Shown piece by piece: positions 8,195 to 29,516 of a DNA stretch of 64,000 nucleotides (positions are counted from its first letter, which is position 1; each line of letters starts with the position of its first letter). This DNA is from an uncultured Planctomycetales bacterium (GTDB lineage Bacteria > Omnitrophota > Gorgyraeia > Zapsychrales > JANLHA01), in contig CAYVEC010000002.1 of assembly GCA_964450385.1 (NCBI GenBank), forward strand, positions 1,262 through 65,261, written 5' to 3'. Under the pieces are notes generated by a model, which searched no databases, was not told the origin of the DNA, and worked only from the letters and a program-made list of their open reading frames with translations. The translations under genes and the position numbers were made by a program.

Positions 8195-8329
8195 CAGACC
8201 CTCCTGTCCTCATGATTTCCAGCCCGCGCCCAGTCCGTTCCGGGGCGAGCCCCAATGTTCCCCTTAAAAAAGTATCTTATTAAAGCGCAATATTAAAAAA
8301 AGTCAATCACTTTTTATCGCCCAGGCCGA

Positions 8330-9640: not shown

Positions 9641-9678
9641 ACACCACCCCTTTTGTTAATCAACAATAAAAGAATTCT

Positions 9679-9712
9679 GTCGGCAGAGAATCCGCCGCGT
9701 TCCTGTGCCGAC
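9679..9712 (-). terminator. candidate terminator downstream of pilQ
   Basis: The inverted repeat GTCGGCA...TGCCGAC is followed on the minus strand by AGAATTCTTTTATT. Confidence 0.35.
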
Positions 9713-9761
9713 GTCTCGACGCGAAATGACCCTTTCCCCCATGAGACCATAATGAAATGTC

Positions 9762-11291: not shown

Positions 11292-11654
11292 CTATTCCTC
11301 CTTTATTAAGGTTAACGTCACGGTTTCATCGCCCTTCGTCAGCACCACCGATCCCTGATCGATCGTCTCGATCCGATACAACCCGATCGTCTCGCCTTCT
11401 TTTAAAATCAACCCATTAATGATCGCGACATTCGTCCCGTCATTCCCGCTCATAATCCCCTGCAAGATCATTTCCGATGACAGGAGGTCCTTGTCATAAC
11501 TAACGACGCCCCCTCCCTTGTTCACAAGCGGCCAAAACGGATCACGGCGCCCGCCATCATCATAAACAAAAGGCCCCGGCTCCTCACCGGTCCAGGCGAT
11601 CCCCGCCTGTCCCAATATTGCCAGCGCCAACATGATGATCACTGCCCAGCGCAT
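11292..11654 (-). CDS. PilP-like small periplasmic protein
   Basis: The 120-aa product has a signal peptide and an 'RRDPFWP' motif. The motif resembles the conserved RDPF motif of PilP. It sits between pilO and pilQ with no gap to pilQ. Confidence 0.45.
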   Translation of the reverse strand: MRWAVIIMLALAILGQAGIAWTGEEPGPFVYDDGGRRDPFWPLVNKGGGVVSYDKDLLSSEMILQGIMSGNDGTNVAIINGLILKEGETIGLYRIETIDQGSVVLTKGDETVTLTLIKEE

Positions 11655-11663
11655 CCCGTCCCC

Positions 11664-12275
11664 CTATTTCGGCTCAAAAATAATCACATGAAACGTCATC
11701 ACGACCCGATGGAGTTTATACGCCTGACGCTCATCGCTCGTCATCTCAAGGGCCGCGAGGTCAGCAAGAACCCCCTCGCCCTCAAGCTGATTCATGAAGC
11801 GTCCGAACTCATGATACCCGGCCTTGGCCTCGACGACAATCGGCAACAAATAATACGCCCCGTCCGCGTCCTTCAAAACCGGAGAGGCCAAGACTGTGTC
11901 CGGCACGATCTGCTCGATCCGAACCCTGTTCCCGTTCGCAATCCGTGAAATATCCTCAAGGATGTCCGGTATATCGCCCTTCCCCTTGATCATGCGATCA
12001 ATCGTCTCAAGCTTCTTGTCCAACCGTTTCGCCTCCGCCTGATATTGGCTGATCCGCTTTTCTCCGTCACGGATCGCCTTAGTCTCCGTTTTGAACTGAT
12101 GGATAGCAGTATTCAATTTGCGGAGGGCTCCTACCTGGAACTGCATGATCCCAAAATAATCGACCAAGAGGACAACGACCAGGATCGCTGAAAACAGGGC
12201 ATACGGATGCTTCTCATTGAGCGTGCCCAGTGTCGCCAGGGCGCGGTCCGATATGTCATTTTTTAATTTTAACAT
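11664..12275 (-). CDS. pilO: type IV pilus assembly protein PilO
   Basis: The 203-aa bitopic protein has one N-terminal TM helix followed by a coiled coil. It occupies the pilMNOPQ operon context. Confidence 0.7.
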   Translation of the reverse strand: MLKLKNDISDRALATLGTLNEKHPYALFSAILVVVLLVDYFGIMQFQVGALRKLNTAIHQFKTETKAIRDGEKRISQYQAEAKRLDKKLETIDRMIKGKGDIPDILEDISRIANGNRVRIEQIVPDTVLASPVLKDADGAYYLLPIVVEAKAGYHEFGRFMNQLEGEGVLADLAALEMTSDERQAYKLHRVVMTFHVIIFEPK

Positions 12276-12885
12276 TCTTCGGTTTCTCCACCACAGGAGC
12301 CGGCTGGCTCGCCTTGATCACAAAATCGGCCACCATGGTTCCGCTCAGGTCCCGGCTTCTGATCGACGTCACCTCGATCGTGTTAAAACTCTCGGCAAAC
12401 GACGGCGTCTCCTTGAGCCCGCTCAGGAACTGAGTGATGTTGATCTTCTCGATCTTCTGCTGAGACACCCCGCTCCCCTCAACGAGCAGAACCCCCTCCT
12501 TAAAAACGATCTTCCTCAGCCAAACACCCCGCGTCAAGGCGCCGCTCACATCGTTCATGGCCCGCGACCAGCAGATGTGCTGTTTTCCTAAAATTTTTTG
12601 AATCGAGCTGATCCGCGCCGCGCGTTTTTTTATCTCCTGCTCGATCCGCGTCACATTCTTCTTATTCGGTAAGGCGGCCTCCCATTGCGCCTTATAAATC
12701 TGATGCTCAGCAAGACGAATAAAAATCAGGAGCTGCAACATAATATGAAAAAAGACGAGGAGGACCGCGACCCCTCCCAGGACACCGAAAACGACGTCAC
12801 GAGGGACCACGAGGCCCTTCATCAATCGGCCGAGGCCGTGGCGTTTCTTTTGGAACTGCTGAGGCGTCAGATTAATAAGAATCAT
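12256..12885 (-). CDS. pilN: type IV pilus assembly protein PilN
   Basis: The 209-aa product has a short cytoplasmic N-terminus, one TM helix and a periplasmic coiled-coil plus ferredoxin-like region. It overlaps pilM by 4 nt. Confidence 0.7.
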   Translation of the reverse strand: MILINLTPQQFQKKRHGLGRLMKGLVVPRDVVFGVLGGVAVLLVFFHIMLQLLIFIRLAEHQIYKAQWEAALPNKKNVTRIEQEIKKRAARISSIQKILGKQHICWSRAMNDVSGALTRGVWLRKIVFKEGVLLVEGSGVSQQKIEKINITQFLSGLKETPSFAESFNTIEVTSIRSRDLSGTMVADFVIKASQPAPVVEKPKNVKIKK

Positions 12886-13976
12886 TGATACACCGCCAAT
12901 CCCAGGGCGACCCCCAGCTGACCGCTGACCCGGCGGAACTCGTCGCGCGACACGTTCGGCGCGATCTCAAACCTGCTAAACGGGTCCCAGACCTCAACGC
13001 GCACATCCAAGGAATTCGAAAAAATCCCGGTCACGCCTTTTAACATCGAAACCCCGCCAGTCAAAAAGAGCTTCGCGATAGTAATATTATTTTCAGTAAC
13101 AAAATAGTCAAACGAGAGCCGCAACTCCGTGATCAGATTCGCAATCGAAGCGTCGGCGAACTCCATGACCGCGGCCTCGCGGTCACCGGGGTTCAGTTTC
13201 AACGCCTCAGCCTCAAGGAGACTGATCTCGAGCCCCTTGGCAATGCTCTCGGCAAGGTCCGTCCCTCCCCAAAAGAGGTCCCGGGTAAACTTCGGGCATT
13301 CTCCAACGATAATCGTCAAATTGCTGACCTGCTCGCCCATATCGAGCAAGGCCACCCCGCGCGGAGCCCCGGCATCAACGGAAGCCAATTCTTCTTTATT
13401 GAAACGCATAAAGGCGTTCACGGCGGCCAACGGATTGAGGGTGATCACGTCCGGGCTGATCCCCCACTCCTGACAATGTCTGACGCGCTGATCCACAAGC
13501 TCCTTCTTAGCCGCGGCGAGCATCACGAGCATCTTCTGATTCTTAAAGTGGTTGTCCAAAATATGACAATCCGTATAGATCTGGTCAGGCGGGAACGGCA
13601 GATATTTATCCATCTCATATGTAAAGGCCTTCTGCAGCTCCTCCTTGGACAATCGAGGCATCTCCACATAACGAATGAGCGTGCCCTTGCCTGAGAGGGC
13701 CGTTGCCGGCGAGACCTCCGGGGCCGGTGACACGGCGAGGACGGCCTTAACCGCACTGACCGAGTCGTTATTTCGAACCGGCTCAACCGCCCAGGCCACC
13801 ACCTCGTAGGTGCCGGCCTTCGGCTTCACTGCGATCATCTTACAGGCGTGCGTCCCGATGTCCAGCCCGATCAGGGGCGCGACCGTGGGTTCAGGAATAT
13901 ACCGCCGGACCCATGCAAGATACCAGACCCATATCTTTTTTATTAAGACGACGAGTTGTTCGATTTTTTTCGACAT
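12882..13976 (-). CDS. pilM: type IV pilus assembly ATPase-like protein PilM (actin-like)
   Basis: The 364-aa product has 'LIGLDIGTHACKMIAV', an actin/HSP70-fold phosphate-1 loop. It is first in the pilMNOPQ order. Confidence 0.85.
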   Translation of the reverse strand: MSKKIEQLVVLIKKIWVWYLAWVRRYIPEPTVAPLIGLDIGTHACKMIAVKPKAGTYEVVAWAVEPVRNNDSVSAVKAVLAVSPAPEVSPATALSGKGTLIRYVEMPRLSKEELQKAFTYEMDKYLPFPPDQIYTDCHILDNHFKNQKMLVMLAAAKKELVDQRVRHCQEWGISPDVITLNPLAAVNAFMRFNKEELASVDAGAPRGVALLDMGEQVSNLTIIVGECPKFTRDLFWGGTDLAESIAKGLEISLLEAEALKLNPGDREAAVMEFADASIANLITELRLSFDYFVTENNITIAKLFLTGGVSMLKGVTGIFSNSLDVRVEVWDPFSRFEIAPNVSRDEFRRVSGQLGVALGLAVYQ

Positions 13977-14093
13977 AATTATAAATAGTAATAGTTACAA
14001 GGCTATAAGCAAAAATATTATAGCATCGTCCTCTGATTTCAAAATAAGGAAATGAAATATTTTCAGGCAGAGAGGTGCTCCCTTGGCAGGGAC

Positions 14094-15608
14094 CTAATAT
14101 TTCCTCCAGACCAACACCTGACACATTCGCCGATCGTTTCCGATCATGCCCGGAGGAAGGTTCTTAGCTGTAGCAGGAACCTGATAGATCTTCGGAACCT
14201 GTCCCCCCATATCAAAATAATTTGAAACGATCGTTCCAATAACATTGGTTTGTTTATCAATAGTGATTTTATCCTGGGCGTAAAAAACCCCCATAATATC
14301 GACCTGGGCGCTTTTCCCGAGATTCAGTGATTTCTTTGTCATAATCCCTAGAATATTGTCCGGGAAAGATCGATCTCCGCTTGTCACTAAATTTTGTTGA
14401 ACGACCACATCTCCGGTAAAAACCATTGAACCCTTCCCAGAGTAGACCAAGTCTGTTTTTTTAGAACTCAACGCAAGCGGCGTTGTTCCATTATCAACAT
14501 AAAGAATGCCGTCTACTGTTAGCGCCCCATTCCCATCCCAAGATACGCTCCCTTTTGAATTACCAAAGCTAAACGCGCCCTGATTAGCAAGATTTCCAAG
14601 TTTTGTTTTTTCAGCAGCGGTTAATTCATAACCGGTTGTTTTTAAATAGGCCTCATACGTTGGATACCCCTTATAGGGATCGCTCAACCTGGGGAAAGAA
14701 ATCTCCTCCCCTAAATCAAAGGCCTCACTCGTCCCGTTATCAGAAAAAACATGTCCCGCCCCCGCCGTGCCGCCGTAGCCATCTGTAACATAGACACCGT
14801 CAACCGTCTCTTTATAACCATTGCCTGTGACGTTCGCCTCACCGACGGCAGATGATCCGCTGATGCCGACAATCCCCTTTTTAACGCGCAGGGTCGCATT
14901 CAATGTCTCAACCCACTCATTGTTAAAAAAGACCTGCGGAAGAACTGGCACCTTGGCTTTTAAATAATCCGCGAGCGTCCGATAGTTGTTCCCCACGATC
15001 TCAGCCGTCCCTCCGAGATCAACCGCATAAGCCCCCTCGTCTAAGTCTTCCCCTAAAATAAGGACCGCTCCCCGAATATCCACATTTCCGTTAATAATTT
15101 TCCCTGACATCCCGCTCCCGGCGAAGATCACATACTCCCAGGGAGACAGATTCACCTGTTTAATATAAACTTCAAGACGGGTCACCGCATCCTGGACCTG
15201 CCCCACGGAACGGATCAAAAGAACACTCGCGTCATTCTGGGCGCGCGTGACGGTCACATTATATTGGCCGTCTTGAAAAGGAACATCGGTAAAAAAATCC
15301 TCTGCGGTGACATTGTCCTCAAAAACGACGTTGATCCCATAGATACTCCCATTCCCCCAAGGATTATAGGCCGAATCATTGTTGAGGTCCCAATCCAGGG
15401 CATAGAACGCAGCATCAACCCCTGCCTCGGCGATGTGAAAGCTCTTCATCGACAGACGTTCCCGCTCAGCGAGCCGCAACTCGCTCGTCGCCAGAAGCAT
15501 GAACGCGGCGCCGATGCCGAGGAGAAGGGCGATCACGCAGTACGCGATGATCAACAGGCTCCCGCGCTCATTGTGAAGACACGCTCGCTGCATCTTTTTC
15601 ATGATCAT
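14094..15608 (-). CDS. large minor pilin with a PilX-N-terminal domain (putative tip or adhesin subunit)
   Basis: The 504-aa product has an N-terminal hydrophobic segment. This is followed by 'ELRLAERERLSMKSFHIAEAGVDAAFYAL', a PilX_N-type signature. The large C-terminal region is predicted beta-rich and Gly/Asn/Thr-rich. Confidence 0.55.
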   Translation of the reverse strand: MIMKKMQRACLHNERGSLLIIAYCVIALLLGIGAAFMLLATSELRLAERERLSMKSFHIAEAGVDAAFYALDWDLNNDSAYNPWGNGSIYGINVVFEDNVTAEDFFTDVPFQDGQYNVTVTRAQNDASVLLIRSVGQVQDAVTRLEVYIKQVNLSPWEYVIFAGSGMSGKIINGNVDIRGAVLILGEDLDEGAYAVDLGGTAEIVGNNYRTLADYLKAKVPVLPQVFFNNEWVETLNATLRVKKGIVGISGSSAVGEANVTGNGYKETVDGVYVTDGYGGTAGAGHVFSDNGTSEAFDLGEEISFPRLSDPYKGYPTYEAYLKTTGYELTAAEKTKLGNLANQGAFSFGNSKGSVSWDGNGALTVDGILYVDNGTTPLALSSKKTDLVYSGKGSMVFTGDVVVQQNLVTSGDRSFPDNILGIMTKKSLNLGKSAQVDIMGVFYAQDKITIDKQTNVIGTIVSNYFDMGGQVPKIYQVPATAKNLPPGMIGNDRRMCQVLVWRKY

Positions 15609-15610
15609 CG

Positions 15611-16126
15611 TCAGTTCCTCAGGCTAATGAAAAACTCTGTCTGCCGGGTGATCGGCACCCCGGACACGGTCTTTTGCGCTGTGATATCGATCTCGATCAG
15701 ATCCGGTTCAGTCATCGACGGCGCGCACCCGAAAACCAGAATATCCGACGCCACGACCCGGGTGACGCCCCCTTCTGTCTTAAGCAGCTGATGGGTGCCG
15801 GCATCAAGGATAAAACGGATCTCGGCATCCTCACCGGCTGGCCACGTCTTAAGTCCAGAAATGAATTCTGGCTTTTTAAAAATCATCATCCCGTCCGCAA
15901 GAGTAATGACCCCGCCCTGCCCGGTCTCGCGTAACGTCCCGGTGATCCCGGTCACGGCCCGGCGGATCTCCTGCTGAAGCTCGATCCGCGTCCGGTTCGC
16001 GCTCCAGAAGCGCTGAGCGACATTCGAGGTCGCGGCCATCCCGCCGGCCAAAAAGAGAAAAATAAAAACAACGACCATGACCTCTGGCAAGGTCATGCCT
16101 TGAGTCCCTCGTCCTCGTGTCAGCAT
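15611..16126 (-). CDS. minor pilin (PilW-like) with class III signal peptide
   Basis: The prepilin cleavage motif is 'G|MTLPEVMVVV' with Glu at +5. I moved the start to the internal Met, which removes the overlap with the upstream gene. The ORF track runs to 16186. Confidence 0.6.
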   Translation of the reverse strand: MLTRGRGTQGMTLPEVMVVVFIFLFLAGGMAATSNVAQRFWSANRTRIELQQEIRRAVTGITGTLRETGQGGVITLADGMMIFKKPEFISGLKTWPAGEDAEIRFILDAGTHQLLKTEGGVTRVVASDILVFGCAPSMTEPDLIEIDITAQKTVSGVPITRQTEFFISLRN

Positions 16127-16160
16127 CCGGTGATCCATCCCCAACTCCCCTGCCTCTCCG

Positions 16161-16679
16161 TCAGCGCCGTGCCAAAACCGTCTCAATCGTGACCGGTGAA
16201 TCGATCAACAGATTGCCATTGATATCCTCGCCGTCCAAGGCGCCGTCCAAATTCTGGTCCTCGCCGACCACCCGGCCGTTGTGATTCCGCCAGCAGACCG
16301 CAACGCGGACCGCAAGGACCTCAAGGGGCTCTCCGTTAATAAGCTCCTCAACCGCACCGCTCGCTGCGACATGCGTGTTCACAACACGGACCGTGCCCAG
16401 GCCCTCGACCCCATCGAGCGGAAACGTCCGGCCATTATATGTTGAGATCAGCGTATCAAAATCAGCCTCGCGCATCTCCTCTATCAAGGCGTCAGCCGCG
16501 ATCAGCGCCGTCATTTTCTTCTCGGCCATGTCCCCGGCGGCCGCGATATAAAGATATCCCCGGATCAATCCCAAGATCACGACCGCAAGAATCGCAGCAA
16601 CAAAGATCACCTCGACGAGTGTAAACCCCCCCCTCGTCCGCCGGCCATGGCCCCATCTCTGACACAAACATTTTCTCAT
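16161..16679 (-). CDS. minor pilin (PilV-like) with class III signal peptide
   Basis: The 172-aa product has the motif 'G|FTLVEVIFVAAIL' with Glu+5. Confidence 0.6.
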   Translation of the reverse strand: MRKCLCQRWGHGRRTRGGFTLVEVIFVAAILAVVILGLIRGYLYIAAAGDMAEKKMTALIAADALIEEMREADFDTLISTYNGRTFPLDGVEGLGTVRVVNTHVAASGAVEELINGEPLEVLAVRVAVCWRNHNGRVVGEDQNLDGALDGEDINGNLLIDSPVTIETVLARR

Positions 16680-17404
16680 AGCGCAACCTCTGTCTCAACG
16701 GGAGTCACCCGCTCCGTCTTAATCAATTGTCCTGACGGATCAAAACGTAAAATTTCAACGAGCTGTCCATGCCGATTATACGCCTTTTTATAACGATTTG
16801 GATCGCGGTTCGTCAAATTCCACTCATACATAACCCGCCCGTCATTAAAATAAACAATTCCATGTCCCGTCTCAACCTCATCAGGCACATTTAAGGCATC
16901 ACGATAGTCGATCTCCATCCGAAGGTCCCCGGATGTAAAATATTCTTTCATCCAAACGATCTTACCGCGATCATACTCCTTAATAAAACGCAGCTGCCCT
17001 GTCTTAAAATATTCGCGATACTCCCCGTCCCAGGCCCCATCGCGCCACTCAGCGTTCCCATATGTCTTCGTCGTCGTATTCTCAAAGGCCACCTTGCCAT
17101 CCGGCACATCACCGCTCATATCAAAGATCCGTTCCCCCTGGCTCTTAAAGCGTCCGATCTGTTCTCCGTTCAGCGAGACAAAATGCAGATTGTATGTCCG
17201 GCTCGGATCCATGACCACCATCATCGTCATCTCAACCGACGGCGCGACAATAAGCCGACCCGAGACGGTCTCGTCGTCAACCGCCTCCTCTTGAACGACA
17301 GGCTTTACCGAGACCCCCTCAAGACGGCGCATGACCACAATATTGATCACGCACCCGGTGACCAATGCCACCCCGATCAGGATCCATGTCTTTTTCTTAT
17401 CCAT
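16676..17404 (-). CDS. membrane-anchored MORN/YwqK-type repeat protein
   Basis: The 242-aa product has an N-terminal TM helix. It carries repeated 'G...Y..G.L......Y' units resembling MORN-variant/YwqK repeats. It is embedded between pilA and the minor pilins. Confidence 0.45.
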   Translation of the reverse strand: MDKKKTWILIGVALVTGCVINIVVMRRLEGVSVKPVVQEEAVDDETVSGRLIVAPSVEMTMMVVMDPSRTYNLHFVSLNGEQIGRFKSQGERIFDMSGDVPDGKVAFENTTTKTYGNAEWRDGAWDGEYREYFKTGQLRFIKEYDRGKIVWMKEYFTSGDLRMEIDYRDALNVPDEVETGHGIVYFNDGRVMYEWNLTNRDPNRYKKAYNRHGQLVEILRFDPSGQLIKTERVTPVETEVAL

Positions 17405-17437
17405 CTCTGCCTGCCTTCGCTCACCTTAGCTCGCCTC

Positions 17438-17473
17438 AAAAAAAGAGGGGGGCCTAATCATTAAGCCCCCCTC
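17438..17473 (-). terminator. rho-independent terminator downstream of pilA
   Basis: On the minus strand there is a perfect 9-bp GC stem GAGGGGGGC/GCCCCCCTC with an 11-nt loop. It is followed by TTTTTTT. Confidence 0.6.
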
Positions 17474-17488
17474 ACAGCACCCAACTCG

Positions 17489-17926
17489 TTACGGAGCTGG
17501 TTCCGGCTCAGGTTCAGCAGCCGCAACCCTCTCCAAGATACCGCCTGTGGTGATGCTGAAAATAACATCATCAGCACCTTCGGGCTTGGTCACAAGCGTC
17601 GCCACGAATTCATAGGCAGCGTCTGTGGCCGTGGGCCAGGTATACTCAAACCCTGAGATTGTACCTTCGCCTACATACGCACGATTGAGATACGGCGGAT
17701 TGGCCTCCGTCAGATCCGCCAATGCTGTCGGATAATTGCCGTTGTGCGATGACGCATAGGTCTCGGCTGCGGTTGATAGTGTCCGCAGGGTGCTCTGCGC
17801 CAACGCCTCGTTGGCCGTCATCCTGGCTCGCAAGAGGTTCGGGATCGCAATGATCGCCAACAGCGCGATGATCGCGACCACGATCATAATCTCGACGAGC
17901 GTGAAACCACGTTGATACCTTCTCAT
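17489..17926 (-). CDS. pilA: type IVa major pilin PilA
   Basis: The short leader reads 'MRRYQRG|FTLVEIMIVVAIIALL' with Glu+5. A perfect SD 'AAGGAGGG' lies 5 nt upstream of this ATG. The ORF track extends to an upstream ATG at 17986. Confidence 0.82.
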   Translation of the reverse strand: MRRYQRGFTLVEIMIVVAIIALLAIIAIPNLLRARMTANEALAQSTLRTLSTAAETYASSHNGNYPTALADLTEANPPYLNRAYVGEGTISGFEYTWPTATDAAYEFVATLVTKPEGADDVIFSITTGGILERVAAAEPEPEPAP

Positions 17927-18422
17927 CTTTCCCTCCTTGTACGTTGACGTACGTTCTCCCCAACCTCCTGCCGCCTGGCCGGGCATTGCGTCGTCACGTG
18001 CCGAGAGAAAAAAGAAAAGATAACTACATTTATCCCGTCACCCAGACGCCTAATGCCTTAACCATTTGGCCCTAAAAGATTTACCAACTTTTGTATAATA
18101 TCACACAGACAGCGTGTGTCAATCGGTAAACCAAAAACTTCAGACAGAATAAAAAAACCCTATTCACAGGGTCAAATAGGGCACAGTTCCATTATATTAA
18201 AACTTCTTTATTAATGGCAACTGGCTGCCCCTATCCACGATAGTCGGGCCCTCTAGCTTTGTGTCCCATCCTTCCGAATGGTTTACCTTGAGCATTAAAC
18301 ACCTTTTTCAAAGAACGTTCTTCCGACACTACAAGTATAGTCTAGGCCTATCGCAAAAGTCAAGGGCACCAAAAGTAGCAAAAATATAATGATTTAAATA
18401 AAATTTGTAAAAAATGAAGGGA
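17927..18422 (-). promoter_or_regulatory. about 0.5 kb AT-rich non-coding leader and promoter region of pilA
   Basis: No credible ORF lies here and GC is clearly below the window average. A GGCACG-N5-GACGCAA element sits at about 17986-18003 on the minus strand. It resembles a sigma54 -24/-12 box but its spacing is 1 nt off consensus. Confidence 0.4.
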
Positions 18423-20114
18423 TTACTGCATCTGCGCCTCGAGAAGTCCGAGTTTGTCCACTAAGCCGCGGTTCTCCTTCTCTAATATCTCAAGATAACT
18501 CGCCAGCTCTTTCATCTCCATGGCCGCCTCATCACGATCCAAACTATCGGCACGGTATTTCTGCTGGGCAATCTCCAGCGAACCCTTCAACGCCTTCTGG
18601 CGGGCCCGCAAGGCAGCCAGGGCCTGCTCCCTGGCCTGTTTATTTTCAACCGCCTTCACCTTGGCCTGGTCCCTCTCTTCAGCCAAAACCTGCGCCTGCT
18701 TCGCGCCCTCTGCCACATCGGTCTCAAGTTCCTTGAGCCGCTGGCTCAATGATGTCTCCTCGGCTGTCACACGCTCGAGCAGGCGAGACCGATCCGTCAT
18801 CTCCCGCTCCGCCGCCTTCCGCACCGCCTCCCTCGTCTCCTCAGCGAACCGCTGTTTGGCCCGCTGGGCTAAAAGATTCTGATATTCACTGCCGAACACC
18901 TTCTGCCGCATCCTCCCCGTCTCCTCGGCAGCGCCGGCCACGCGTGATGCCATCACCGCGAGCTCCGCCTTAAGCCCTTCCATGTCGCCTCGCAACCGAG
19001 CCGTCTCAGCCTCTTGGGCCGCGATCTCGCGCCCGATATCCGCCGAGTCCGACTGAAGGATCCGCTGCCGCGCAGCCAATTGTTCCTGCTCCCCAACGAG
19101 AACCAGTCGCTGATGGTCTGCCCCCGCGACCCCATCTTCGGCCGAGCGCTTGATCTCAAGGAACCGCGCCCGAGCGCGGAGCAACTCATTATGCTCACGG
19201 ACCTGGGCCCGCAGGCGCTCTAAGGCCTCAGCCTGTCGGTCAAAATCAGCGGTGATCTCCCGACGGACACGGGCCATGTCAGCGCTCGCCTCGCGGAGCG
19301 ATTGACTATACTGACGAAGCCCCGCAACCTTGAGTTCCGCTTCCTTCACCACGGAACGACCCTCACTGCGATAACGGCTCTTATGGCGCTCTAATAATGC
19401 GTATTGATCTTCAGCCTCTCGGATCTCTAGACGAAGGAGCGAGGCTCGCTCCTCAAGCCCCGACCGCTGGCGGAGGGTCTTTTCCTTTAAACCCAGCTGA
19501 TGGGTCCGCTCGACGTCAAGAAGATCGGCGTCGCCCTCTTTCGCAAAGATCCGCCGCCGGACATCCTGGACCATCTCACGGAGCTTAACGCGCTCTTCGG
19601 AATAATAATCCAGCAATTCATTCGGCGCGCGTCGAAGACCCCGCTCCTTAAGGACCTTGATCTCGGGGGTCAGGGCCTCGATCGTCTGCTGAGCGAGACG
19701 CTGTTCCTGAGTCTCCCTCTCGATCCGCTGGGCCACCCCGTCCTTCTCGAGAGTCAAAAAACGCTGGCGTTCTAAAATATTCGCGGCATGTTTGCGAAGG
19801 CCATCGAGTTCCCGGCCCTCGGCCTTGATTGTATTCCTCATCACGGCGGCCTCTTCCATCAAACGAGTCCGCCGATCGCTGAACGAACGCGATTCGTCAC
19901 GAATAAAGATCATCCTTTTTCGAAGGGCATCGTTCTTTCCGGCAAGCTGCTGGTTCTGATCAACCAATCCCTTGATCTTCTCCTGAAGGTCGATGAGGGT
20001 ATATTCAAGGAGGTCATCGGCGCTCATCCCGCCCTGCTGAGCGTGGGCGCCCACGGCCCAGACGCCGACGGCCACGATCGCCACAATGATGTTCAACCCC
20101 CTCTGTCCCCGCAT
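18423..20114 (-). CDS. secreted long coiled-coil protein of unknown function
   Basis: The signal peptide reads 'MRGQRGLNIIVAIVAVGVWAVGAHA'. About 540 aa are then dominated by Glu/Arg/Ala/Leu/Gln heptad-like sequence. It lies between pilC and pilA. Confidence 0.5.
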   Translation of the reverse strand: MRGQRGLNIIVAIVAVGVWAVGAHAQQGGMSADDLLEYTLIDLQEKIKGLVDQNQQLAGKNDALRKRMIFIRDESRSFSDRRTRLMEEAAVMRNTIKAEGRELDGLRKHAANILERQRFLTLEKDGVAQRIERETQEQRLAQQTIEALTPEIKVLKERGLRRAPNELLDYYSEERVKLREMVQDVRRRIFAKEGDADLLDVERTHQLGLKEKTLRQRSGLEERASLLRLEIREAEDQYALLERHKSRYRSEGRSVVKEAELKVAGLRQYSQSLREASADMARVRREITADFDRQAEALERLRAQVREHNELLRARARFLEIKRSAEDGVAGADHQRLVLVGEQEQLAARQRILQSDSADIGREIAAQEAETARLRGDMEGLKAELAVMASRVAGAAEETGRMRQKVFGSEYQNLLAQRAKQRFAEETREAVRKAAEREMTDRSRLLERVTAEETSLSQRLKELETDVAEGAKQAQVLAEERDQAKVKAVENKQAREQALAALRARQKALKGSLEIAQQKYRADSLDRDEAAMEMKELASYLEILEKENRGLVDKLGLLEAQMQ

Positions 20115-20131
20115 CGTCAGCCCCTCCACCC

Positions 20132-21337
20132 CTACTTAATCATCTGAGTCAGACTCAAGATCGGCATAAACAAGGCGATCACGATGAACCCAATGACAAC
20201 GCCCAAGACAACAATGATCACCGGTTCGATAATGCTCGTCAGACTCGCAACAGCGGCATCGACCTGGTCCTCATAAAACTCCGCAAGCTTGGTCAGCATC
20301 TTTTCAAGCTGACCGGATTTTTCGCCGATCGAGATCATCCGCGTCACCATCGGCGGGAAGACCGGACTTTTCATCAGTTGCGTGGCGATGCTATCGCCTT
20401 CACGAACGCTGTTTTTGACCGATTCGATGACGAGCTCGATCTCGCGATTGCCGCTCGTCCTGCCGACGATGTCAAGCGACTCAAGGATCGGCACACCGGT
20501 CTGGAGCAGGATCGCGAGCGTCCGGCTGAACCGGCTGATCACCGCCTTGCAGATGAGTTCTCCAAAAAGCGGGATGCGGAGCATCAGGCGGTCGATCGCC
20601 AACCGCCCCGCCGAGGTCCGATACCATCGCGCCAGAAAGAAAATGCCGACGACCAACGCCCCGAAGATCCACAACAAGTATTTCTTGAGAAAATCGCTCA
20701 TGTCGATCAGGATCTGGGTCATCCAGGGGAGCTCTGTGTCGAACGATTCATAGATCTCGGCAAAGGCCGGGACCATCTTCACGAGCAGGAGCGTGGTGAT
20801 CCCGATGGCGACACACACAACAACCGCGGGATAGGTCAAGGCCGAAATGACCTTGCGGCGCAGTTTCGCGCTTTTCTCAAGATACCCCGAGATCCGGTCC
20901 AGGATCTTGCTCAAGACCCCGCCGGTCTCGCCGACCTTCACCATGTTCACAAAGAGATTATCAAACACCTTCGGATGTTTGGCGAAGGCGGCCGACAGAC
21001 TACTGCCCAATTGAATGTCCTCGCGGAGTGAGCCGATGACCATCCTAAAATACGGATGGGTCATCTGCTCTTCAAGGGCCTCTAGGCACTGGAGGATCGG
21101 AATGCCCGCCTCGACCATCGTCGCAAGCTGCCGGGAAAAAATAACAAGGTCATCGGATTTGACCTTCTTCCGTTGAAAGGAGAACGCAATCCCCTTCTGC
21201 CTCACCTCGACGATCGAAACGACCATCAGGTTGCGGTTGCGGAGCTCGGAGACCACTCCTTTTTCATTATCAGCGGTGACGGAACCCATCACGGTCTGGG
21301 CATTATGGTCCTTCGCGACATACTTATAAGTCGGCAT
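20132..21337 (-). CDS. pilC: type IV pilus inner-membrane platform protein PilC (GspF family)
   Basis: The 401-aa product has two GspF repeats with three TM segments. Confidence 0.88.
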   Translation of the reverse strand: MPTYKYVAKDHNAQTVMGSVTADNEKGVVSELRNRNLMVVSIVEVRQKGIAFSFQRKKVKSDDLVIFSRQLATMVEAGIPILQCLEALEEQMTHPYFRMVIGSLREDIQLGSSLSAAFAKHPKVFDNLFVNMVKVGETGGVLSKILDRISGYLEKSAKLRRKVISALTYPAVVVCVAIGITTLLLVKMVPAFAEIYESFDTELPWMTQILIDMSDFLKKYLLWIFGALVVGIFFLARWYRTSAGRLAIDRLMLRIPLFGELICKAVISRFSRTLAILLQTGVPILESLDIVGRTSGNREIELVIESVKNSVREGDSIATQLMKSPVFPPMVTRMISIGEKSGQLEKMLTKLAEFYEDQVDAAVASLTSIIEPVIIVVLGVVIGFIVIALFMPILSLTQMIK

Positions 21338-21429
21338 TGCAATCCCTCTTATAATATGATGATTACAAAAAATATTTTATCATGTTTGTATCTTCAGAAT
21401 ATTGATTTCTGAGATTTCTTTACGCCGGA

Positions 21430-23139
21430 TCAAATGTCGCTCGTTGCGATCCGAAGGGCCTCCTCAAGACTCGTGAGACCCGCAGCGCACTTTCCGATCA
21501 CATCATCCCACAACGTGACCATCCCTCGGTCCGCGCAGGCGTACTTTTTGATCGCATCCGATGATTCGCCCCGAATGAGCATCGTGCGCACCGCATCATC
21601 GATCTCGAGGACCTCGGTGACCCCGAGACGGCCATGATATCCCGTGCCGCGGCAGATGTCGCATCCCCGGGCGCGATAAAAAATCGTTCCGGGAGGAGCC
21701 TCGACGTGCAACCGCGCCAAGGCATCGGCGGGAACATCCTCGCGCTCCTTACAATGACTGCAAAGACGACGGCAGAGACGCTGGGCGCACACAAGGACGA
21801 GACTCGATGCAACAAGGAACGGCTCAATCCCCATATCAACAAGCCGGGTCAAGGCGCCGGCGGCATCGTTCGTGTGCAGGGTCGAGAGCACGAGCTGGCC
21901 GGTCAGCGCTGCCTTGATCGCAATATCCGCGGTCTCACCATCGCGGATCTCGCCGACCATGACGACGTCGGGACTCTGACGAAGGATCGCACGAAGGGCC
22001 GAGGCAAAGGTCAGTCCGATTTCAGGCCGGGCCTCGATCTGGGTCAACCCCTCGACAAGGTATTCAACCGGGTCTTCGACCGTAATGATGTTCCGGTCAA
22101 CGGTGTTCAATTCATTGATGACCGAATACAAGGTCGTCGACTTTCCACTCCCCGTCGGTCCGGTCACCAAGAGCATCCCGAAGGGTTTATACATCCCCTC
22201 CTTCAGGACCTCGGTAGCCCGCGGCGAAAACCCCAGACCGCTTAATCCCACACTCAAATTTTTCTTATCAAGAACACGCAGGACCACCTTCTGCCCGAAC
22301 GTCGTCGGCAGGAGGGACACGCGGAAATCTACTTCCGTCGAAGAGAACCTCATCTTGAACCGTCCATCCTGAGGGGCCCGCGTCTGCGTAATATCAACGC
22401 GGGACATAATCTTAATTCGAACGATCACCGCGTTCTGATTGTCTTTCGGCACATTCATAATATCTTGGAGAACTCCGTCGATGCGGAAACGCACCCGCAT
22501 CCCTTCGGGGGCCGGCTCGAGATGGATGTCCGAGGCACGTTGGCGAAGGGCCTCTTTGATCATAAGATTAACCAGCCGAATGATCGGCGCCTGTTCGCCC
22601 TCATCGGCCCCTCCGTCGGCCACGTGATTGTCGGCCCGTTCGGTCACGATCTCAAAGTCCTTCAAATCGATATCACGGCTGAGATCACGGACACTGTCCG
22701 TAACCGCACCGCTGTAATAATCCTCGATCGCCTGCATAATATCGGTTTCCGTCCCCATCACCATATCGATGTCGTGCCCGGTAATATTCTTCAGGTCATC
22801 CGTCACAAACACATTGAGGGGATCAGCGATCGCGACCGTGATCGTGTCTTTCAGACGAGAGAGGGGGACAATGTGATACTGCCGGGCGACGCGCTCGGGA
22901 ACCAGATTCTTCAGTTCAGGACTGATCTTATATTTCTTTAAATTAATGAACGGGATCCTGAGCTCCTTCACGAGCGAGGTCAGCATGTCCTCTTCTTTGA
23001 TCAGCCCCTTCTCGATCAGAGCCCGATCCAGAGAGATCCCCCGGCTCTCCTGAAGGGCGATCGCCGACTCGATCTCCTTCTGCGGGATCTTTAATGACTC
23101 GATCAGGGCCTTAATGATCTTTTGCTTTAACGTATCCAC
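21430..23139 (-). CDS. pilB: type IV pilus assembly ATPase, PilB/GspE family (paralog B)
   Basis: The 569-aa product has an N-terminal GspE_N domain and Walker A 'GPTGSGKST'. It carries the tetracysteine motif 'CSHC...CDIC'. Confidence 0.85.
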   Translation of the reverse strand: MDTLKQKIIKALIESLKIPQKEIESAIALQESRGISLDRALIEKGLIKEEDMLTSLVKELRIPFINLKKYKISPELKNLVPERVARQYHIVPLSRLKDTITVAIADPLNVFVTDDLKNITGHDIDMVMGTETDIMQAIEDYYSGAVTDSVRDLSRDIDLKDFEIVTERADNHVADGGADEGEQAPIIRLVNLMIKEALRQRASDIHLEPAPEGMRVRFRIDGVLQDIMNVPKDNQNAVIVRIKIMSRVDITQTRAPQDGRFKMRFSSTEVDFRVSLLPTTFGQKVVLRVLDKKNLSVGLSGLGFSPRATEVLKEGMYKPFGMLLVTGPTGSGKSTTLYSVINELNTVDRNIITVEDPVEYLVEGLTQIEARPEIGLTFASALRAILRQSPDVVMVGEIRDGETADIAIKAALTGQLVLSTLHTNDAAGALTRLVDMGIEPFLVASSLVLVCAQRLCRRLCSHCKEREDVPADALARLHVEAPPGTIFYRARGCDICRGTGYHGRLGVTEVLEIDDAVRTMLIRGESSDAIKKYACADRGMVTLWDDVIGKCAAGLTSLEEALRIATSDI

Positions 23140-23143
23140 GTTA

Positions 23144-24859
23144 TTACCCTATTCCTTCGTCAGGCGCGGTGACACGCAGAACCTCCTCAAGCGAGGTGTG
23201 CCCAGCCACCGCCTTCAAAAGCCCGTCCTCACGCATCGTCCGCATCCCTTCTCGCCGTCCGACCTCTTTGATCTTAAGCTCCCCGGACTGATGGAGGATC
23301 TCTTCACGCACCGGGGCCGTGAGGACGAGAAGCTCGCAAATAACAACCCGGCCGACATACCCAGTATTAAGGCACTCGGGACACCCCCTGCCGCGATACA
23401 GGCGGAACGTCTTCTCACCTAAGAGGGCCGTCAACCCCACCCGGCGAGCGAGCTCCGGCACAACCTCATACGATTCGCGGCATCGCGGACAGATCCGCCG
23501 GACAAGACGCTGCCCGGTGATCGCCAGGACCGAAGAGCACAGGAGAAACGGCTCGATCCCCATGTTCATCATGCGGATGATCGACCCTGCCGCCGTTGTC
23601 GTATGCAGGGAACTTAAGACCAGATGCCCAGTCAGCGCGGCCTTGACCGCGATATCCAGGGTCTCGGTATCCCGGATCTCACCGATCATGATGATATCAG
23701 GATCCTGCCGGAGGATCGAACGCAGGGCCGAGGCAAAGGTCAAACCTACCGACGGCCGGACATTCACCTGATTGATGCCCTTGACCTGATATTCAACCGG
23801 GTCCTCGACCGTGATGATGTTCTTCCCTGGAGAATCGACAAATTTCAGAACGGAATACAGGGTCGTGGTCTTCCCGCTCCCCGTCGGACCGCACGAGAGG
23901 ATCATCCCGTGGGGATGGAGCGAGACCTCCTTGAGACGGGCCAGATCCGACTCCTCAAACCCAAGCTTCTCAAGGTCCAACGCCCCAGCGGATTTGTCAA
24001 GGACGCGGAGCACGATCTTCTCACCGAACGCCGTCGGCAAGACATTGACACGGAAATCAATCTCACGGCCGTTGACCACGGTCTTGAACCGCCCGTCCTG
24101 CGGCAACCGGTGCTCCGAAATATCAAGATTGGAAACAACCTTAATCCGTGAAATGATCGGCTGATGCAGGGCCTTGGCCATCTGATCGATCTCGCGAATG
24201 ATACCGTCGATACGATACCGAATACGGAGCGTCGCCTCCATCGGTTCGATGAACACATCGCTCGCCTTCGCAAGGACCGACTGATGAATGATCGTGTCCG
24301 TCAACTTGATCATCGGGGCGTCCTGGACGATGTCCGTCACCTTAACATCACCCACCCCGTCACTCTTCACGAGCTCGCCGTCCTCAGAGATGTCTTTAAT
24401 GATGTCCTTAAGGGCCGCGCTCGTATCGGCAGAATAATATTTATCGATGGTCTGTTGGATCTGGGCCGAACGACCGATGATCGGAATGATGTTCAGGCCT
24501 GTCAGGACCTGGACATTATCGATCGCAAAAATATTGAGGGGATCGGCCATGGCGAGGGTGAGGTTATCCCCCATCCGCGAGACCGGCATGATCTTGTTTT
24601 TCTCGGCGACAGCGCGCGGGATGATCTTGACGACCTCGGGATCGATGCGCAGGCGCGAGATGTCGATCGGCGGCATCCCAAGCCCCTCGCTTAACGCATG
24701 GGTCAGATCGTCCTCGGTCACCAGCTTCATCTGAACCAGGATCCGGCTCAGCTCGCCCCCGGATTTCTTTTGCTCATCGAGGGCCCGCTGAAGGTCCGCC
24801 TCTTTGATGATCTGATCCCTGATCAGGACCTGCTGTAAACGTTCCTTGAGCGAGAACAT
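23144..24859 (-). CDS. pilB: type IV pilus assembly ATPase, PilB/GspE family (paralog A)
   Basis: The 571-aa product has an N-terminal GspE_N domain and Walker A 'GPTGSGKTT'. It carries the tetracysteine motif 'CPRC...CPEC'. Confidence 0.85.
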   Translation of the reverse strand: MFSLKERLQQVLIRDQIIKEADLQRALDEQKKSGGELSRILVQMKLVTEDDLTHALSEGLGMPPIDISRLRIDPEVVKIIPRAVAEKNKIMPVSRMGDNLTLAMADPLNIFAIDNVQVLTGLNIIPIIGRSAQIQQTIDKYYSADTSAALKDIIKDISEDGELVKSDGVGDVKVTDIVQDAPMIKLTDTIIHQSVLAKASDVFIEPMEATLRIRYRIDGIIREIDQMAKALHQPIISRIKVVSNLDISEHRLPQDGRFKTVVNGREIDFRVNVLPTAFGEKIVLRVLDKSAGALDLEKLGFEESDLARLKEVSLHPHGMILSCGPTGSGKTTTLYSVLKFVDSPGKNIITVEDPVEYQVKGINQVNVRPSVGLTFASALRSILRQDPDIIMIGEIRDTETLDIAVKAALTGHLVLSSLHTTTAAGSIIRMMNMGIEPFLLCSSVLAITGQRLVRRICPRCRESYEVVPELARRVGLTALLGEKTFRLYRGRGCPECLNTGYVGRVVICELLVLTAPVREEILHQSGELKIKEVGRREGMRTMREDGLLKAVAGHTSLEEVLRVTAPDEGIG

Positions 24860-24862
24860 GCC

Positions 24863-25312
24863 TTATGATTTCCGGTAATATTTCGTGATCGCCTCTTTAA
24901 TATCCGCGCCCGTCGCGACAAAGGTCTGAACGCTGCACCCGGTCAAGGCCTCAACATCCTCAACGGCAGTCATGTTCAACGGATCGGCCATGGCCAAGGT
25001 CAGGCTCTTTCCGATCTTATCGATCGGGATCAGACAAAACCGGCGGCAGACATCTTCAGGAACCGCGTCGAGAACTTCCTGATCGATCTCATAATTCGCC
25101 AAAGGCAAGTAAGGAAAACCATATTGACAGGTCAGGGCCTGCGCGATATCCTCTTCGGTGGCGAATTTCAGTTCGACGAGGACCTCACCAAAGAGCCCGC
25201 CTTTTTCTTTTTGAAAGGCCATGGCCGCGAGAACCTGATCCGCGTTGATCACGCCTCGGTCGATGAGGAGCTCGCCCAAATGTTTATTTGACGCCCGCTT
25301 TAAATTCTTCAT
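24863..25312 (-). CDS. standalone GspE_N/MshEN-like domain protein (candidate c-di-GMP binding)
   Basis: It runs about 150 aa from the internal Met 'MKNLKRASNKHLGELLIDRGVINADQVLAAMAFQ'. This fits the MshEN motif pattern RLGxxLxxxGxIxxxQLxxALxxQ. It has no ATPase domain. Confidence 0.55.
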   Translation of the reverse strand: MKNLKRASNKHLGELLIDRGVINADQVLAAMAFQKEKGGLFGEVLVELKFATEEDIAQALTCQYGFPYLPLANYEIDQEVLDAVPEDVCRRFCLIPIDKIGKSLTLAMADPLNMTAVEDVEALTGCSVQTFVATGADIKEAITKYYRKS

Positions 25313-25400
25313 CCATCCCCCGATCACCCAAAATCTTGCGCTTATTGTACTACAGAACACACCTTCGCTCAATTTATAGTATTATTAATGCTACTATATT

Positions 25401-26507
25401 TTAAAAAATGGTCCGGCGCCGACTCAAGCTCAACAGGAGCCCAATCATCACAACAGAGATCATATAGGATGACCGGCCAAAACTCACGAGCGGCAAAGTC
25501 AGCCCCACGACTGGACAGAGCCCCAAGACCATCCCGATATTGATAACGACCTGAAGAATAAAAATACCCACGATCCCAACGGCGAGATGGACCCCAAATC
25601 GGTCCTGGCTCTCCTCCGCGACCTTGAGACCGCAATACATGAGAACCGCATAACACGCCACCACAAAAAGGGTTCCCGCAAGCCCCCACTCCTCGCCAAT
25701 AACGGAAAAAATAAAATCCGTGTGCCTCTCCGGCAAGAAATTCAACTGATTCTGCGTGCCCTCAAGCCATCCCTTCCCGAGCACCCCCCCGGAACCGATC
25801 GCGATCTTTGACTGAATGATCGTGTAGCCCGCGCCCAAAGGATCAATGTTCGGGTTAAGAAAAACAAGGAGCCGGTCGCGCTGATAGGGTTTGAGAATAT
25901 GCCAGGCAAAAGGCATCAGGCAAAGACAGGCCCCCAAGAACCCGCCTAAATATTTATACGACAGCCCGCTGGCAAAGGCCATAATAACGAAGATCCCCAG
26001 GAAGAGGAGCGCAGTCCCGAGGTCCGGCTGTTTAAAGATGAGCAGCGTCGGAAAAAGAACAAGGATCAGGGGCACTCCGAGATCCATCCAGATATCACCA
26101 TAGAGGACCTCATCCTTAAAAGCAAATGAGGAACGGCGCTCAGCAAAATACCTGGCCAGGACAAAGATCACCCCTAGTTTCGCGAATTCCGACGGCTGAA
26201 AACTGATCCCGGCGAAAGAGAACCATCGCGTCGCGCCCAAGGCATGACGGCCCATAAGCAGGACAAGGATCAGGAGGAGGACGATCCCGCCGTAATAACC
26301 ATACGCGATATCATAACAATGACGATAATCCATGCGGCTCAAGAGAAACATCACGACGATGCCTGCCACGGCAAAAAAAAGCTGGGCATAAAAGACCTCA
26401 TTCGACACGCGCACATTCTGATACGAGGCGCTATATAAGGCCACGAGCCCCGCCGCCATAATGAGGATCGTGCTGACCCAAATGCCTATCGAGAGATAAC
26501 GATTCAT
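25401..26507 (-). CDS. rodA: SEDS-family peptidoglycan glycosyltransferase RodA
   Basis: The 368-aa polytopic membrane protein sits immediately downstream of PBP2. Confidence 0.85.
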   Translation of the reverse strand: MNRYLSIGIWVSTILIMAAGLVALYSASYQNVRVSNEVFYAQLFFAVAGIVVMFLLSRMDYRHCYDIAYGYYGGIVLLLILVLLMGRHALGATRWFSFAGISFQPSEFAKLGVIFVLARYFAERRSSFAFKDEVLYGDIWMDLGVPLILVLFPTLLIFKQPDLGTALLFLGIFVIMAFASGLSYKYLGGFLGACLCLMPFAWHILKPYQRDRLLVFLNPNIDPLGAGYTIIQSKIAIGSGGVLGKGWLEGTQNQLNFLPERHTDFIFSVIGEEWGLAGTLFVVACYAVLMYCGLKVAEESQDRFGVHLAVGIVGIFILQVVINIGMVLGLCPVVGLTLPLVSFGRSSYMISVVMIGLLLSLSRRRTIF

Positions 26508-26510
26508 CGG

Positions 26511-28226: not shown

Positions 28227-28687
28227 TCTTTCAACTTTCGAAAAACAAATCCTGCCACGACCGTCGTGGCGATCAGCTCCGGCAATAAAATCGAGGATAG
28301 AACCTGGCCCCAATCGATCGGCACAAAAAAGGAACGCACCGCGCCCTGAAGAATCACATAGAGGATCGTCACGACGAAGACAATAAAGACCCGCCATCCT
28401 CCGGAACCGGGGATATAAAAATACATTTTCACGAACGAGGCAAGGCAGGCGCTCCCCATAAAAACAAAAATATGGAGACCGAAAAGGTCCGCACTAAAAC
28501 AATCACGGAGCAGACCGGCCCAGAAGGCCGTCAGCATCCCGTAGCGGATCCCCCGATAAAGATTAAAAAAGACAACCGCCGTGATCAACAGGTTCGGCCT
28601 AAACCAGCCGCCGAAACAGTCGATCAGAACCTGCTCAATGACAAATAGAGCAACAACGACCAGGGCAATAATCGCAGTATTTCTCAT
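28202..28687 (-). CDS. mreD: rod shape-determining protein MreD
   Basis: The 161-aa polytopic membrane protein lies between mreC and mrdA. Confidence 0.7.
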   Translation of the reverse strand: MRNTAIIALVVVALFVIEQVLIDCFGGWFRPNLLITAVVFFNLYRGIRYGMLTAFWAGLLRDCFSADLFGLHIFVFMGSACLASFVKMYFYIPGSGGWRVFIVFVVTILYVILQGAVRSFFVPIDWGQVLSSILLPELIATTVVAGFVFRKLKECALKLFA

Positions 28688-28707
28688 CCAGCCCTCACAT
28701 CACAGAT

Positions 28708-29493: not shown

Positions 29494-29516
29494 ACATTAA
29501 AGTCTTCTAAACCGGG

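Follow-up and report, generated by a model that had tools for sequence, protein, structure and literature searches.

The type IV pilus ranks with the most thoroughly mapped machines of the cell envelope, and the list of its parts is regarded as nearly complete. The locus described here, in a 64-kb stretch of contig CAYVEC010000002.1 (the window), raises the question of what a large additional protein is doing in such a machine: an open reading frame (ORF), here called X, lies between the platform gene pilC and the pilin gene pilA, and a whole clade of an uncultured phylum adds this extra part at the same place. The answer that we favour, to which we give about an even chance, is that X is a Sec-exported, non-enzymatic, segmented coiled-coil rod that would act as a lineage-specific periplasmic structural accessory of the pilus machine, as a parallel dimer docking through motifs at its two ends.

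The ORF was found where the sequence-only reading had placed it and lies on the minus strand (Table 1); the plus-strand translation of the same interval is riddled with stop codons. An in-frame ATG (20114), 15 nt 3' of the GTG from which the ORF was listed, is preceded by a GGAGG Shine-Dalgarno sequence, and the public gene call for the identical protein (P0001) has 563 aa. The true start is therefore probably this ATG, and residues are numbered throughout in the 563-aa form. With the ATG as start, the gap between the pilC stop codon and X is 17 nt and not the 2 nt from which co-transcription with pilC had been proposed, so that the figure fell and the tight linkage stood: a simple scan from 20300, with pilC lying outside it, found no terminator-like site on the X strand inside X or in the pilC-X spacer.

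Half of the protein (50.7%) consists of alanine (13.0%), glutamate (12.9%), arginine (12.9%) and leucine (12.0%), as its earlier description had it; 36.6% of the residues are charged, cysteine is absent and there are two prolines. Searches of Pfam, NCBIfam, PHROGs and PDB sequences gave nothing specific for X, only generic coiled coils, and no enzymatic domain, in line with the claim that it lacks enzymatic motifs. The sole NCBIfam matches were to the coiled-coil arms of SMC proteins, with TIGR02168 at 19.6 bits against a cut-off of 567. No Pfam or NCBIfam model of the standard type IVa pilus (T4aP) parts (PilM, PilN, PilO, PilP, PilQ and pilins) matched X either, and all of these parts are encoded separately in the locus; the view that X is not a standard T4aP component was thus borne out.

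An exhaustive phmmer scan of 1.84 billion representative proteins (E<=1e-3) returned 31 other proteins matching X, about 22 of which (550-620 aa) align with it end to end, and three further members (P0024-P0026) are shorter through a deletion in the third coiled-coil segment (CC3). The family alignment (A1) comprises 26 members with a median pairwise identity of 20%, and it is nearly gap-free between the signal peptide and the C-terminus. X itself has every feature by which the family is recognized, namely the signal peptide plus N54 zipper, the EYL.VL..EN..L motif, the 494-residue spacing described below and the pilC-X-pilA position. On these comparisons, X is a real gene of a real family. 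No Pfam family was common to more than one of the 26 members, and no enzymatic or binding domain was found in any of them. Word-indexed homologue searches with X alone or with the 26-sequence profile returned just the query, the index being swamped by low-complexity coiled-coil words; an exact-sequence look-up of the X of the window among contigs gave no match, and its protein cluster has one member.

So far, the family has been met only in loci attributed here to Candidatus Omnitrophota. The closest PilC, RodA and PilB proteins (72-82% identical) come from bins labelled as this phylum, some public records being labelled 'uncultured Planctomycetales'; Candidatus Aceula is placed in Omnitrophota. 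Full-text literature searches, whose coverage was incomplete so that an earlier description is possible, found no account of the X family or of a comparable pilus component.

The sequence-only reading had held that an absence of conservation next to pil genes in relatives would count against a pilus role; instead, the position beside pil genes proved to be strongly kept. In look-ups that started from the family, six of six divergent members (16-21% identical to X) were located directly after a T2SSF/PilC gene, with the caveat that P0009, on a short contig, follows a cut gene of 120 residues, probably the end of pilC. Wherever the contig is long enough, the X homologue is followed by a pilin gene. 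In these loci, as in L001, L002 and L011 (full-length loci from genomes), 1-17 nt separate pilC from X. Among species-representative genomes, an ORF with a signal peptide and a coiled coil follows pilC in 10 of 10 evaluable loci with a PilC at least 57% identical, and the order rodA, MshEN, pilB, pilB, pilC, X, pilA recurs in 10 loci; the slot after pilC held no such ORF in two Omnitrophota loci at 47% PilC identity, nor in other phyla. Metagenomes were scanned with a PilC alignment and the ORFs downstream of pilC were then read. An ORF with a signal peptide and a coiled coil was present in about 46 of the 52 evaluable loci whose PilC identity reaches 54% and absent from all of the about 27 loci in which it is 51% or less. 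Exceptions with a related PilC are L040, L049 and L081, which have no X and a different gene order, and L031, which may hold a degenerate copy.

These three loci without X are natural comparators for the machine. In L040 (4738-7039), pilC is followed by genes for an uncharacterised 645-aa protein and a response-regulator-like protein; in L049 and L081, pilC leads straight to a pilin gene and then to pilN-pilO-pilP-pilQ.

The N-terminus of X (MRGQRG-LNIIVAIVAVGVWAVG-AHA/QQ, the slash marking the probable cleavage site) is organised like a Sec signal peptide, with basic, hydrophobic and small-x-small parts, and this segment is the only hydrophobic stretch of the protein. The signal peptide proposed earlier has its equivalent throughout the family: an uncharged hydrophobic window is present in 26 of 26 aligned members, small-x-small sites follow it in all 26, and K or R precedes it in 25. 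As judged from these N-termini, X is exported via a Sec-type signal peptide. No membrane anchor, lipobox, peptidoglycan-binding domain or barrel was found in it.

Beyond this signal, the hydrophobicity of the heptad a and d positions is kept, column after column of the family alignment, over ~530 residues that begin near residue 30 and reach the C-terminus, with shifts of the heptad phase in the family-wide signal near residues 165, 255, 310-335, 400 and 485. AlphaFold2, run with the 26-sequence alignment, predicted three long helices for full-length X (CC1, CC2 and CC3 in Table 1), with a mean predicted local distance difference test score (pLDDT) of 73.8, a predicted template modelling score (pTM) of 0.30, and low-confidence breaks at residues 158-169 and 325-342. 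The near-continuous heptad-like sequence of about 540 residues noted before is matched by these data, at ~535 residues of heptad-patterned helix. The two-helix N-module of CC1 and CC2 (residues 27-325), modelled by itself as a check for an antiparallel hairpin, gave a pLDDT of 87.4 and a pTM of 0.30. Foldseek searches against the PDB yielded nothing usable with the full-length model (E>3, root-mean-square deviation above 20-50 Å) and zero matches with the N-module model, and the family profile matched generic coiled coils of the PDB, among them the myosin rod, tropomyosin, crescentin, vimentin, keratin and SMC arms.

Conservation peaks at both ends of the rod, in the two motifs listed in Table 1, and both are leucine zippers. 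In the N-terminal zipper, with hydrophobic positions 36, 40, 43, 47, 50, 57, 64, 68, 71, 75 and 78, two successive heptad a positions are taken by N54 (26 of 26 members) and N61 (N in 22 of 26). In the C-terminal zipper, L537, L541, L544, L551, L555 and L558 frame the invariant N548, which is also at an a position; Y540, E547, N548 and L551 are invariant in this motif, and all are present in the X of the window. Leucines at d positions flank N54, N61 and N548. A buried asparagine at heptad position a is a classic determinant of parallel, in-register dimers in zippers of the GCN4 type. An antiparallel in-register homodimer was considered and dropped, as the heptad discontinuities (~165, 255, 322, 400 and 485) are asymmetric about the midpoint.

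The distance between the two invariant asparagines, N54 and N548, is exactly 494 residues in 13 of the 23 long members, including the X of the window, and 483-495 residues in all 23, at a median pairwise identity of 21%. Within the rod, N54 and L241 (L in 24 of 26 members) are 187 residues apart in 19 of 26 members and 184-187 apart overall; the changes sit in the linker of break 1, which is the only part of the N-module in which the family shows length changes, of 1-3 residues. From L241 to the invariant L312 there are 71 residues in 25 of 26 members, and from L509 to N548 there are 39 in 21 of 26. The stretch from L312 to L509, in break 2 and CC3, accounts for nearly all length variation; CC3 is the only segment that tolerates length change, with the deletions of 48-82 residues in P0024-P0026, and it is mostly missing from shorter homologues. 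A continuous rod between the two asparagines would measure ~73 nm (494 x 0.1485 nm), and the fully extended rod ~73-80 nm. Conserved ends, free sequence and fixed length are together the signature of a spacer, a tether or a lattice element, and the combination is likewise seen in SMC arms and in the rods of intermediate filaments.

The shorter homologues, of 220-370 aa, occupy the same position in many loci and extend the length range across lineages to 221-620 aa. Most of them align to the N-terminal module of the profile (positions ~10-336) and keep the N-terminal motif; in many, the C-terminal motif is another one (..DLDKRKS.LE..). Their two motifs lie 172-271 residues apart, most often 265-271, so this spacing is less fixed than in the long form.

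The lack of any device for retention in the envelope, in a protein with a signal peptide, would also suit a protein that leaves the cell. X could be pushed out through the PilQ secretin by the pilus, as TcpF and CofJ leave the cell through type IVb pili, and serve as an adhesin or host-contact fibre of 70-80 nm, with the N-terminal motif as the recognition site for the pilus tip or the minor pilins; these bacteria are probably host-dependent nanobacteria. That motif is the one element common to the long and short subfamilies, a wide length range between lineages is usual for surface proteins, and extended X is longer than the periplasm is wide. Nevertheless, exact conservation of helix lengths at ~21% identity points to a structural fit and not to host-driven diversification, X is coupled to pilC and not to pilA or the minor pilins, and the predicted form of the N-terminal motif is that of a helical zipper, not of a flexible peptide. 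In addition, the machine encoded here is of the T4a type with PilMNOPQ, and we know of no TcpF/CofJ-type cargo for such machines. We consider secretion of X unlikely.

The sequence-only reading had itself proposed a ruler or strut. As a radial ruler, the rod would stand between the inner and outer membranes, or between the PilC/PilNO platform and PilQ, and set or brace the periplasmic distance; it could be stretched out across an exceptionally wide periplasm or be folded up as its three segments of 19, 22 and 31 nm. Length conservation and conserved ends would suit such a ruler, the single segments have lengths near a normal periplasmic width, typically about 20-35 nm, and the PilQ of the window, with N0 and only one N domain, reaches just a short way into the periplasm. 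The length of a coiled coil can set the envelope spacing needed by trans-envelope machines, as described for Lpp (PMC8824477). On the other side, extended X is two to three times as long as a normal periplasm is wide, and AlphaFold2 gave no confident fold-back of the N-module (pTM 0.30). Some homologues have the 48-82-residue deletions in CC3, and the short ones lack ~220-250 residues, yet PilN, PilO and PilQ change by just ~10-40 residues between the few loci compared (209-219, 203-205 and 509 aa in long-form loci; 195-201, 194-206 and 471 aa in short-form loci). Neither end of X carries a lipid anchor, a transmembrane segment, or an SLH, LysM, OmpA-like or peptidoglycan-binding domain. Because the rod is too long, PilN, PilO and PilQ hardly track its length and its ends have no anchor, a radial ruler is less likely than a scaffold, and we judge it to be quite improbable.

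The anatomy of the rod also raises the possibility of a periplasmic polymer of the intermediate-filament type, assembled head to tail, whose main job would be cell shape or envelope organisation, with a secondary or machine-positioning role in the pil locus. X resembles an intermediate-filament rod in that its helical segments do not vary in length, its linkers are short, its heptad discontinuities are conserved and conservation is strongest at the two rod ends; crescentin, vimentin and keratin are among the matches of the family profile. The pil operon directly follows mreB-mreC-mreD-pbp2-rodA, and the adjacency rodA-MshEN-pilB is kept in 10 related loci (L001, L002, L004, L005, L007-L011 and L018). 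A precedent for a periplasmic coiled-coil filament is CrvA of Vibrio cholerae (PMC5502672). This explanation nevertheless appears very unlikely: the PDB matches are generic, with myosin and tropomyosin scoring higher, there is no sign of polymerisation of X, and X tracks pilC and not rodA, lying three genes into the pil operon and being missing when the PilC type changes.

The relation of X to the genes on either side is not symmetrical. The X-pilA spacer is 436 nt long and AT-rich, and it holds five of the six sigma-70-like sites in the 3 kb scanned, compared to 1.5 expected; a search for sigma-54 promoters upstream of pilA gave nothing relevant. It also contains an aptamer of the cyclic di-GMP (c-di-GMP)-I class followed by a terminator-like hairpin (Table 1). 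In related loci, the X-pilA gap is about 440-630 nt, and a c-di-GMP-I riboswitch lies in the same spacer in 9 of 14. These promoter-like sites, together with the riboswitch and the terminator, group X with pilB-pilB-pilC and not with pilA. X would therefore belong to the pilB-pilB-pilC transcription unit, and pilA would form a separate unit gated by c-di-GMP; of the statement that X is wedged between pilC and pilA, the gene order remains and the close link to pilA does not. MshEN is a class of domain that binds c-di-GMP. With a riboswitch ahead of pilA and MshEN in both PilB proteins and in a stand-alone protein, the pilus system appears to be under c-di-GMP control at two levels. Public gene calls of 56-106 aa at or near the riboswitch in relatives (L024 6897-7159, L027 6875-7045 and L023 2155-2475) are probably spurious ORFs.

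Two PilB-like ATPases are encoded in the locus, and no PilT-type retraction ATPase is encoded within the 64-kb window. This could fit a regulator of pilus dynamics, a periplasmic factor that would stabilise extended pili or slow their retraction. Its charged surface would bind to pilins or to the base of the pilus, in place of a scaffold role. TfpC, which is needed to keep Neisseria pili on the surface against PilT (PMC7593972), is likewise periplasmic, highly charged and coiled-coil. However, X has no DUF4124 match and is four times longer than TfpC, and a simple binding factor would not need such strict conservation of length. We regard this role, too, as very unlikely.

The favoured reading, a structural accessory of the pilus machine, would work as follows. 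X would be made from a pilB-pilB-pilC-X message, alongside the low-copy motor and platform parts and apart from the riboswitch-controlled pilin. After removal of the signal peptide, two chains would zip up in parallel and in register, with the register set by buried a-position asparagines in each of the two conserved end zippers. These ends would be docking or assembly sites, and the helices between them, free in sequence and fixed in length, would provide a spacer or scaffold in the periplasm, beside or around the pilus basal body. We infer the parallel dimeric state, the retention in the periplasm, the contact with Pil proteins and the scaffold role from sequence features. A precedent for a periplasmic, highly charged coiled-coil accessory of pili is TfpC of Neisseria (PMC7593972).

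Several points weigh against this reading. An extended rod of ~73-80 nm cannot stand radially in a normal periplasm. The pTM of 0.30 in both AlphaFold2 models leaves the relative placement of the helices undefined. The short homologues, with no CC3, another C-terminal motif and variable length, mean that strict length is not universal, and the lengths of PilN, PilO and PilQ shift only slightly between long- and short-form loci. Finally, the existence of closely related pil loci without X (L040, L049 and L081) indicates that it is dispensable for at least some such machines.

The length data would be better matched by a rod that lies tangentially, or by a head-to-tail lattice like that of intermediate filaments and of the periplasmic CrvA (PMC5502672), than by a radial ruler. 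A more specific and tentative proposal is that X is a length-calibrated periplasmic element, either a fixed-length tether or an intermediate-filament-like 'periskeletal' lattice formed through the rod ends, that positions, spaces or braces pilus basal bodies in Omnitrophota nanobacteria. To our knowledge, no pilus system has a length-calibrated periplasmic coiled-coil component.

Table 1. Position of X, its segments and surrounding features in the window, and of the riboswitch in related loci (L numbers; coordinates of each locus)
Feature	Coordinates	Strand	Details
ORF X	18423..20129	minus	568 codons from GTG; stop codon 18423..18425
Sec-type signal peptide, residues 1-25	20040..20114	minus	read from sequence; probable cleavage AHA/QQ
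N-terminal rod-end motif, residues 30-82	19869..20027	minus	MS.DE.LEY.L.DL...M......N..L..KN.ALRKRI..L.
CC1, residues 32-158	19641..20021	minus	AlphaFold2 helix; single continuous heptad phase; ~19 nm as helix
Break 1, residues 159-170	19605..19640	minus	Gly/Pro linker, same place across the family
CC2, residues 171-319	19158..19604	minus	AlphaFold2 helix; pLDDT 90-97 in N-module model; ~22 nm as helix
Break 2, residues 320-349	19068..19157	minus	low AlphaFold2 confidence, weak heptad signal
CC3, residues 350-562	18429..19067	minus	AlphaFold2 helix; ~31 nm as helix
C-terminal rod-end motif, residues 499-562	18429..18620	minus	L.LR...L..SL..I..KY.......F..EE.EL.EYL.VLK.EN..L..K...L.
c-di-GMP-I (GEMM-I) riboswitch aptamer	18213..18297	minus	RF01051, 58.9 bits vs gathering score 35
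Terminator-like hairpin + T-run	18157..18182	minus	just after aptamer; probable expression platform
pilA (major pilin)	17489..17986	minus	N_methyl
Strong terminator after pilA	17445..17473	minus	
MORN-repeat protein	16676..17404	minus	242 aa; membrane-anchored; directly after pilA; uncharacterised
504-aa protein among minor pilins	14094..15608	minus	no Pfam match; uncharacterised
pilM-pilN-pilO-pilP-like-pilQ	9762..13976	minus	remainder of T4aP machine
pilC (platform)	20132..21337	minus	T2SSF PF00482 E 5.6e-69; NF052607, TIGR02120 (PilC, GspF models); directly upstream of X
PilB/GspE-type ATPase	21430..23139	minus	with MshEN; 569 aa
PilB/GspE-type ATPase	23144..24859	minus	with MshEN; 571 aa
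Stand-alone MshEN protein	24863..25372	minus	169 aa; first gene after rodA; order kept in relatives
mreB-mreC-mreD-pbp2-rodA cluster	25401..30593	minus	pilus operon begins 28 nt after rodA
Riboswitch in L001	9007-9101		
Riboswitch in L002	9009-9108		
Riboswitch in L011	8989-9075		
Riboswitch in L023	2255-2342		
Riboswitch in L025	6853-6937		
Riboswitch in L027	6783-6868		
Riboswitch in L033	6518-6602		
Riboswitch in L039	5828-5919		
Riboswitch in L053	5842-5927		

All genes of the mre-pil region are on the minus strand. The trio of an MshEN-only protein and two PilB-type ATPases recurs in related loci. Downstream of pilA are the genes for the MORN-repeat protein and the minor pilins, followed by pilM, pilN, pilO, a PilP-like gene and the pilQ secretin gene. 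A Shine-Dalgarno-like sequence, AAGGAAGG, lies ahead of M21 of the listed pilA ORF (17926), and the leader that results (MRRYQRG/FTLVEIM, cleaved at the slash) is that of a typical short T4a prepilin; pilA thus probably starts at M21, and the listed ORF 20 codons too early. In L027, a protein of 559 aa with DUF4900 is placed similarly to the 504-aa protein of the window. Over the whole window (1..64000), the GC skew is uniformly negative (-0.09 to -0.22) and almost all long ORFs are on the minus strand, consistent with a single replichore with strongly co-oriented genes.

A distance of 494 residues between invariant asparagines at ~21% identity, together with a near-invariant N-module, describes a coiled coil selected for length and end contacts and not for sequence. 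If it were a machine-bound spacer or lattice, X would represent a new design principle for the architecture of pili and secretion systems, and it would offer a way in to the dimensions of the envelope where the organisms cannot be cultured. Omnitrophota of this clade are regarded as ultra-small cells that depend on hosts and rely on pili, and a secreted X would be a candidate host-contact fibre. The family merits a name and a profile in place of the annotation 'hypothetical protein'. Direct tests are limited by the uncultured state of the organisms, but the X protein itself should be easily made and measured.

Among known systems, FimV, HubP and TsaP resemble X as lineage-variable accessory components of the T4aP envelope complex. 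They are defined by a LysM peptidoglycan-binding domain, to which FimV and HubP add a transmembrane segment and a cytoplasmic part. A remote homology of X to these proteins, named earlier as something to check, was not found: neither X nor the 26 members have LysM or another domain of the FimV, TsaP or HubP type, X has no TPR match, and the signal peptide is its sole hydrophobic segment.

Like X, the soluble proteins TcpF and CofJ have a signal peptide and a gene that lies in a pilus operon. They belong to type IVb systems, are globular and are recognised through a flexible N-terminal peptide, whereas X is a rod made up of helices only, and its PilMNOPQ locus is of the T4a type. The arms of SMC proteins share with X the divergence in sequence and conservation in length of their coiled coils, and they account for its weak NCBIfam matches. 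Nevertheless, X has no ATPase head, hinge, AAA or SMC_N Pfam match, the 19.6 bits (vs 567) of TIGR02168 come from the arms only, and X is exported whereas SMC proteins are cytoplasmic. PHROGs gave 0 families, and the context of X is chromosomal (mreBCD-pbp2-rodA-pil genes), so it was not assigned to the phage tape-measure proteins. A match to either of these unrelated families, named beforehand as evidence against a pilus role, is thus absent.

TfpC (NGO0783) of N. gonorrhoeae is, like X, an exported, highly charged, non-enzymatic coiled-coil protein linked to T4aP, located in the envelope, and the resemblance is functional only. In its mature form it has 147 aa, with a proline-rich extended stretch as well as DUF4124/PF13511 (PMC7593972), whereas X has a coiled coil of ~540 aa and its gene lies within the pil operon, immediately downstream of pilC; no PF13511 match was found in X or in the members of its family.

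Omp-alpha of Thermotoga is a coiled-coil spacer of the envelope. Lpp (Braun's lipoprotein) is reported to be a coiled coil whose length sets an envelope distance (PMC8824477). X was not placed with either, having no cysteine or lipobox, no C-terminal lysine (it ends ...LEAQMQ), no SLH and no C-terminal membrane anchor; it also has about 10 times the length of Lpp and is found specifically in the pil operon.

Crescentin and CrvA share with X the segmented rod, the short linkers, the conserved ends and the fixed segment lengths, and CrvA works in the periplasm (PMC5502672). Their sequences have no specific relation to that of X, with myosin and tropomyosin scoring as well or better, and both are determinants of cell shape and not pil-operon genes, unlike X. 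By analogy, then, X would work most like a coiled-coil spacer or scaffold, with an architecture that resembles the rod of intermediate filaments.

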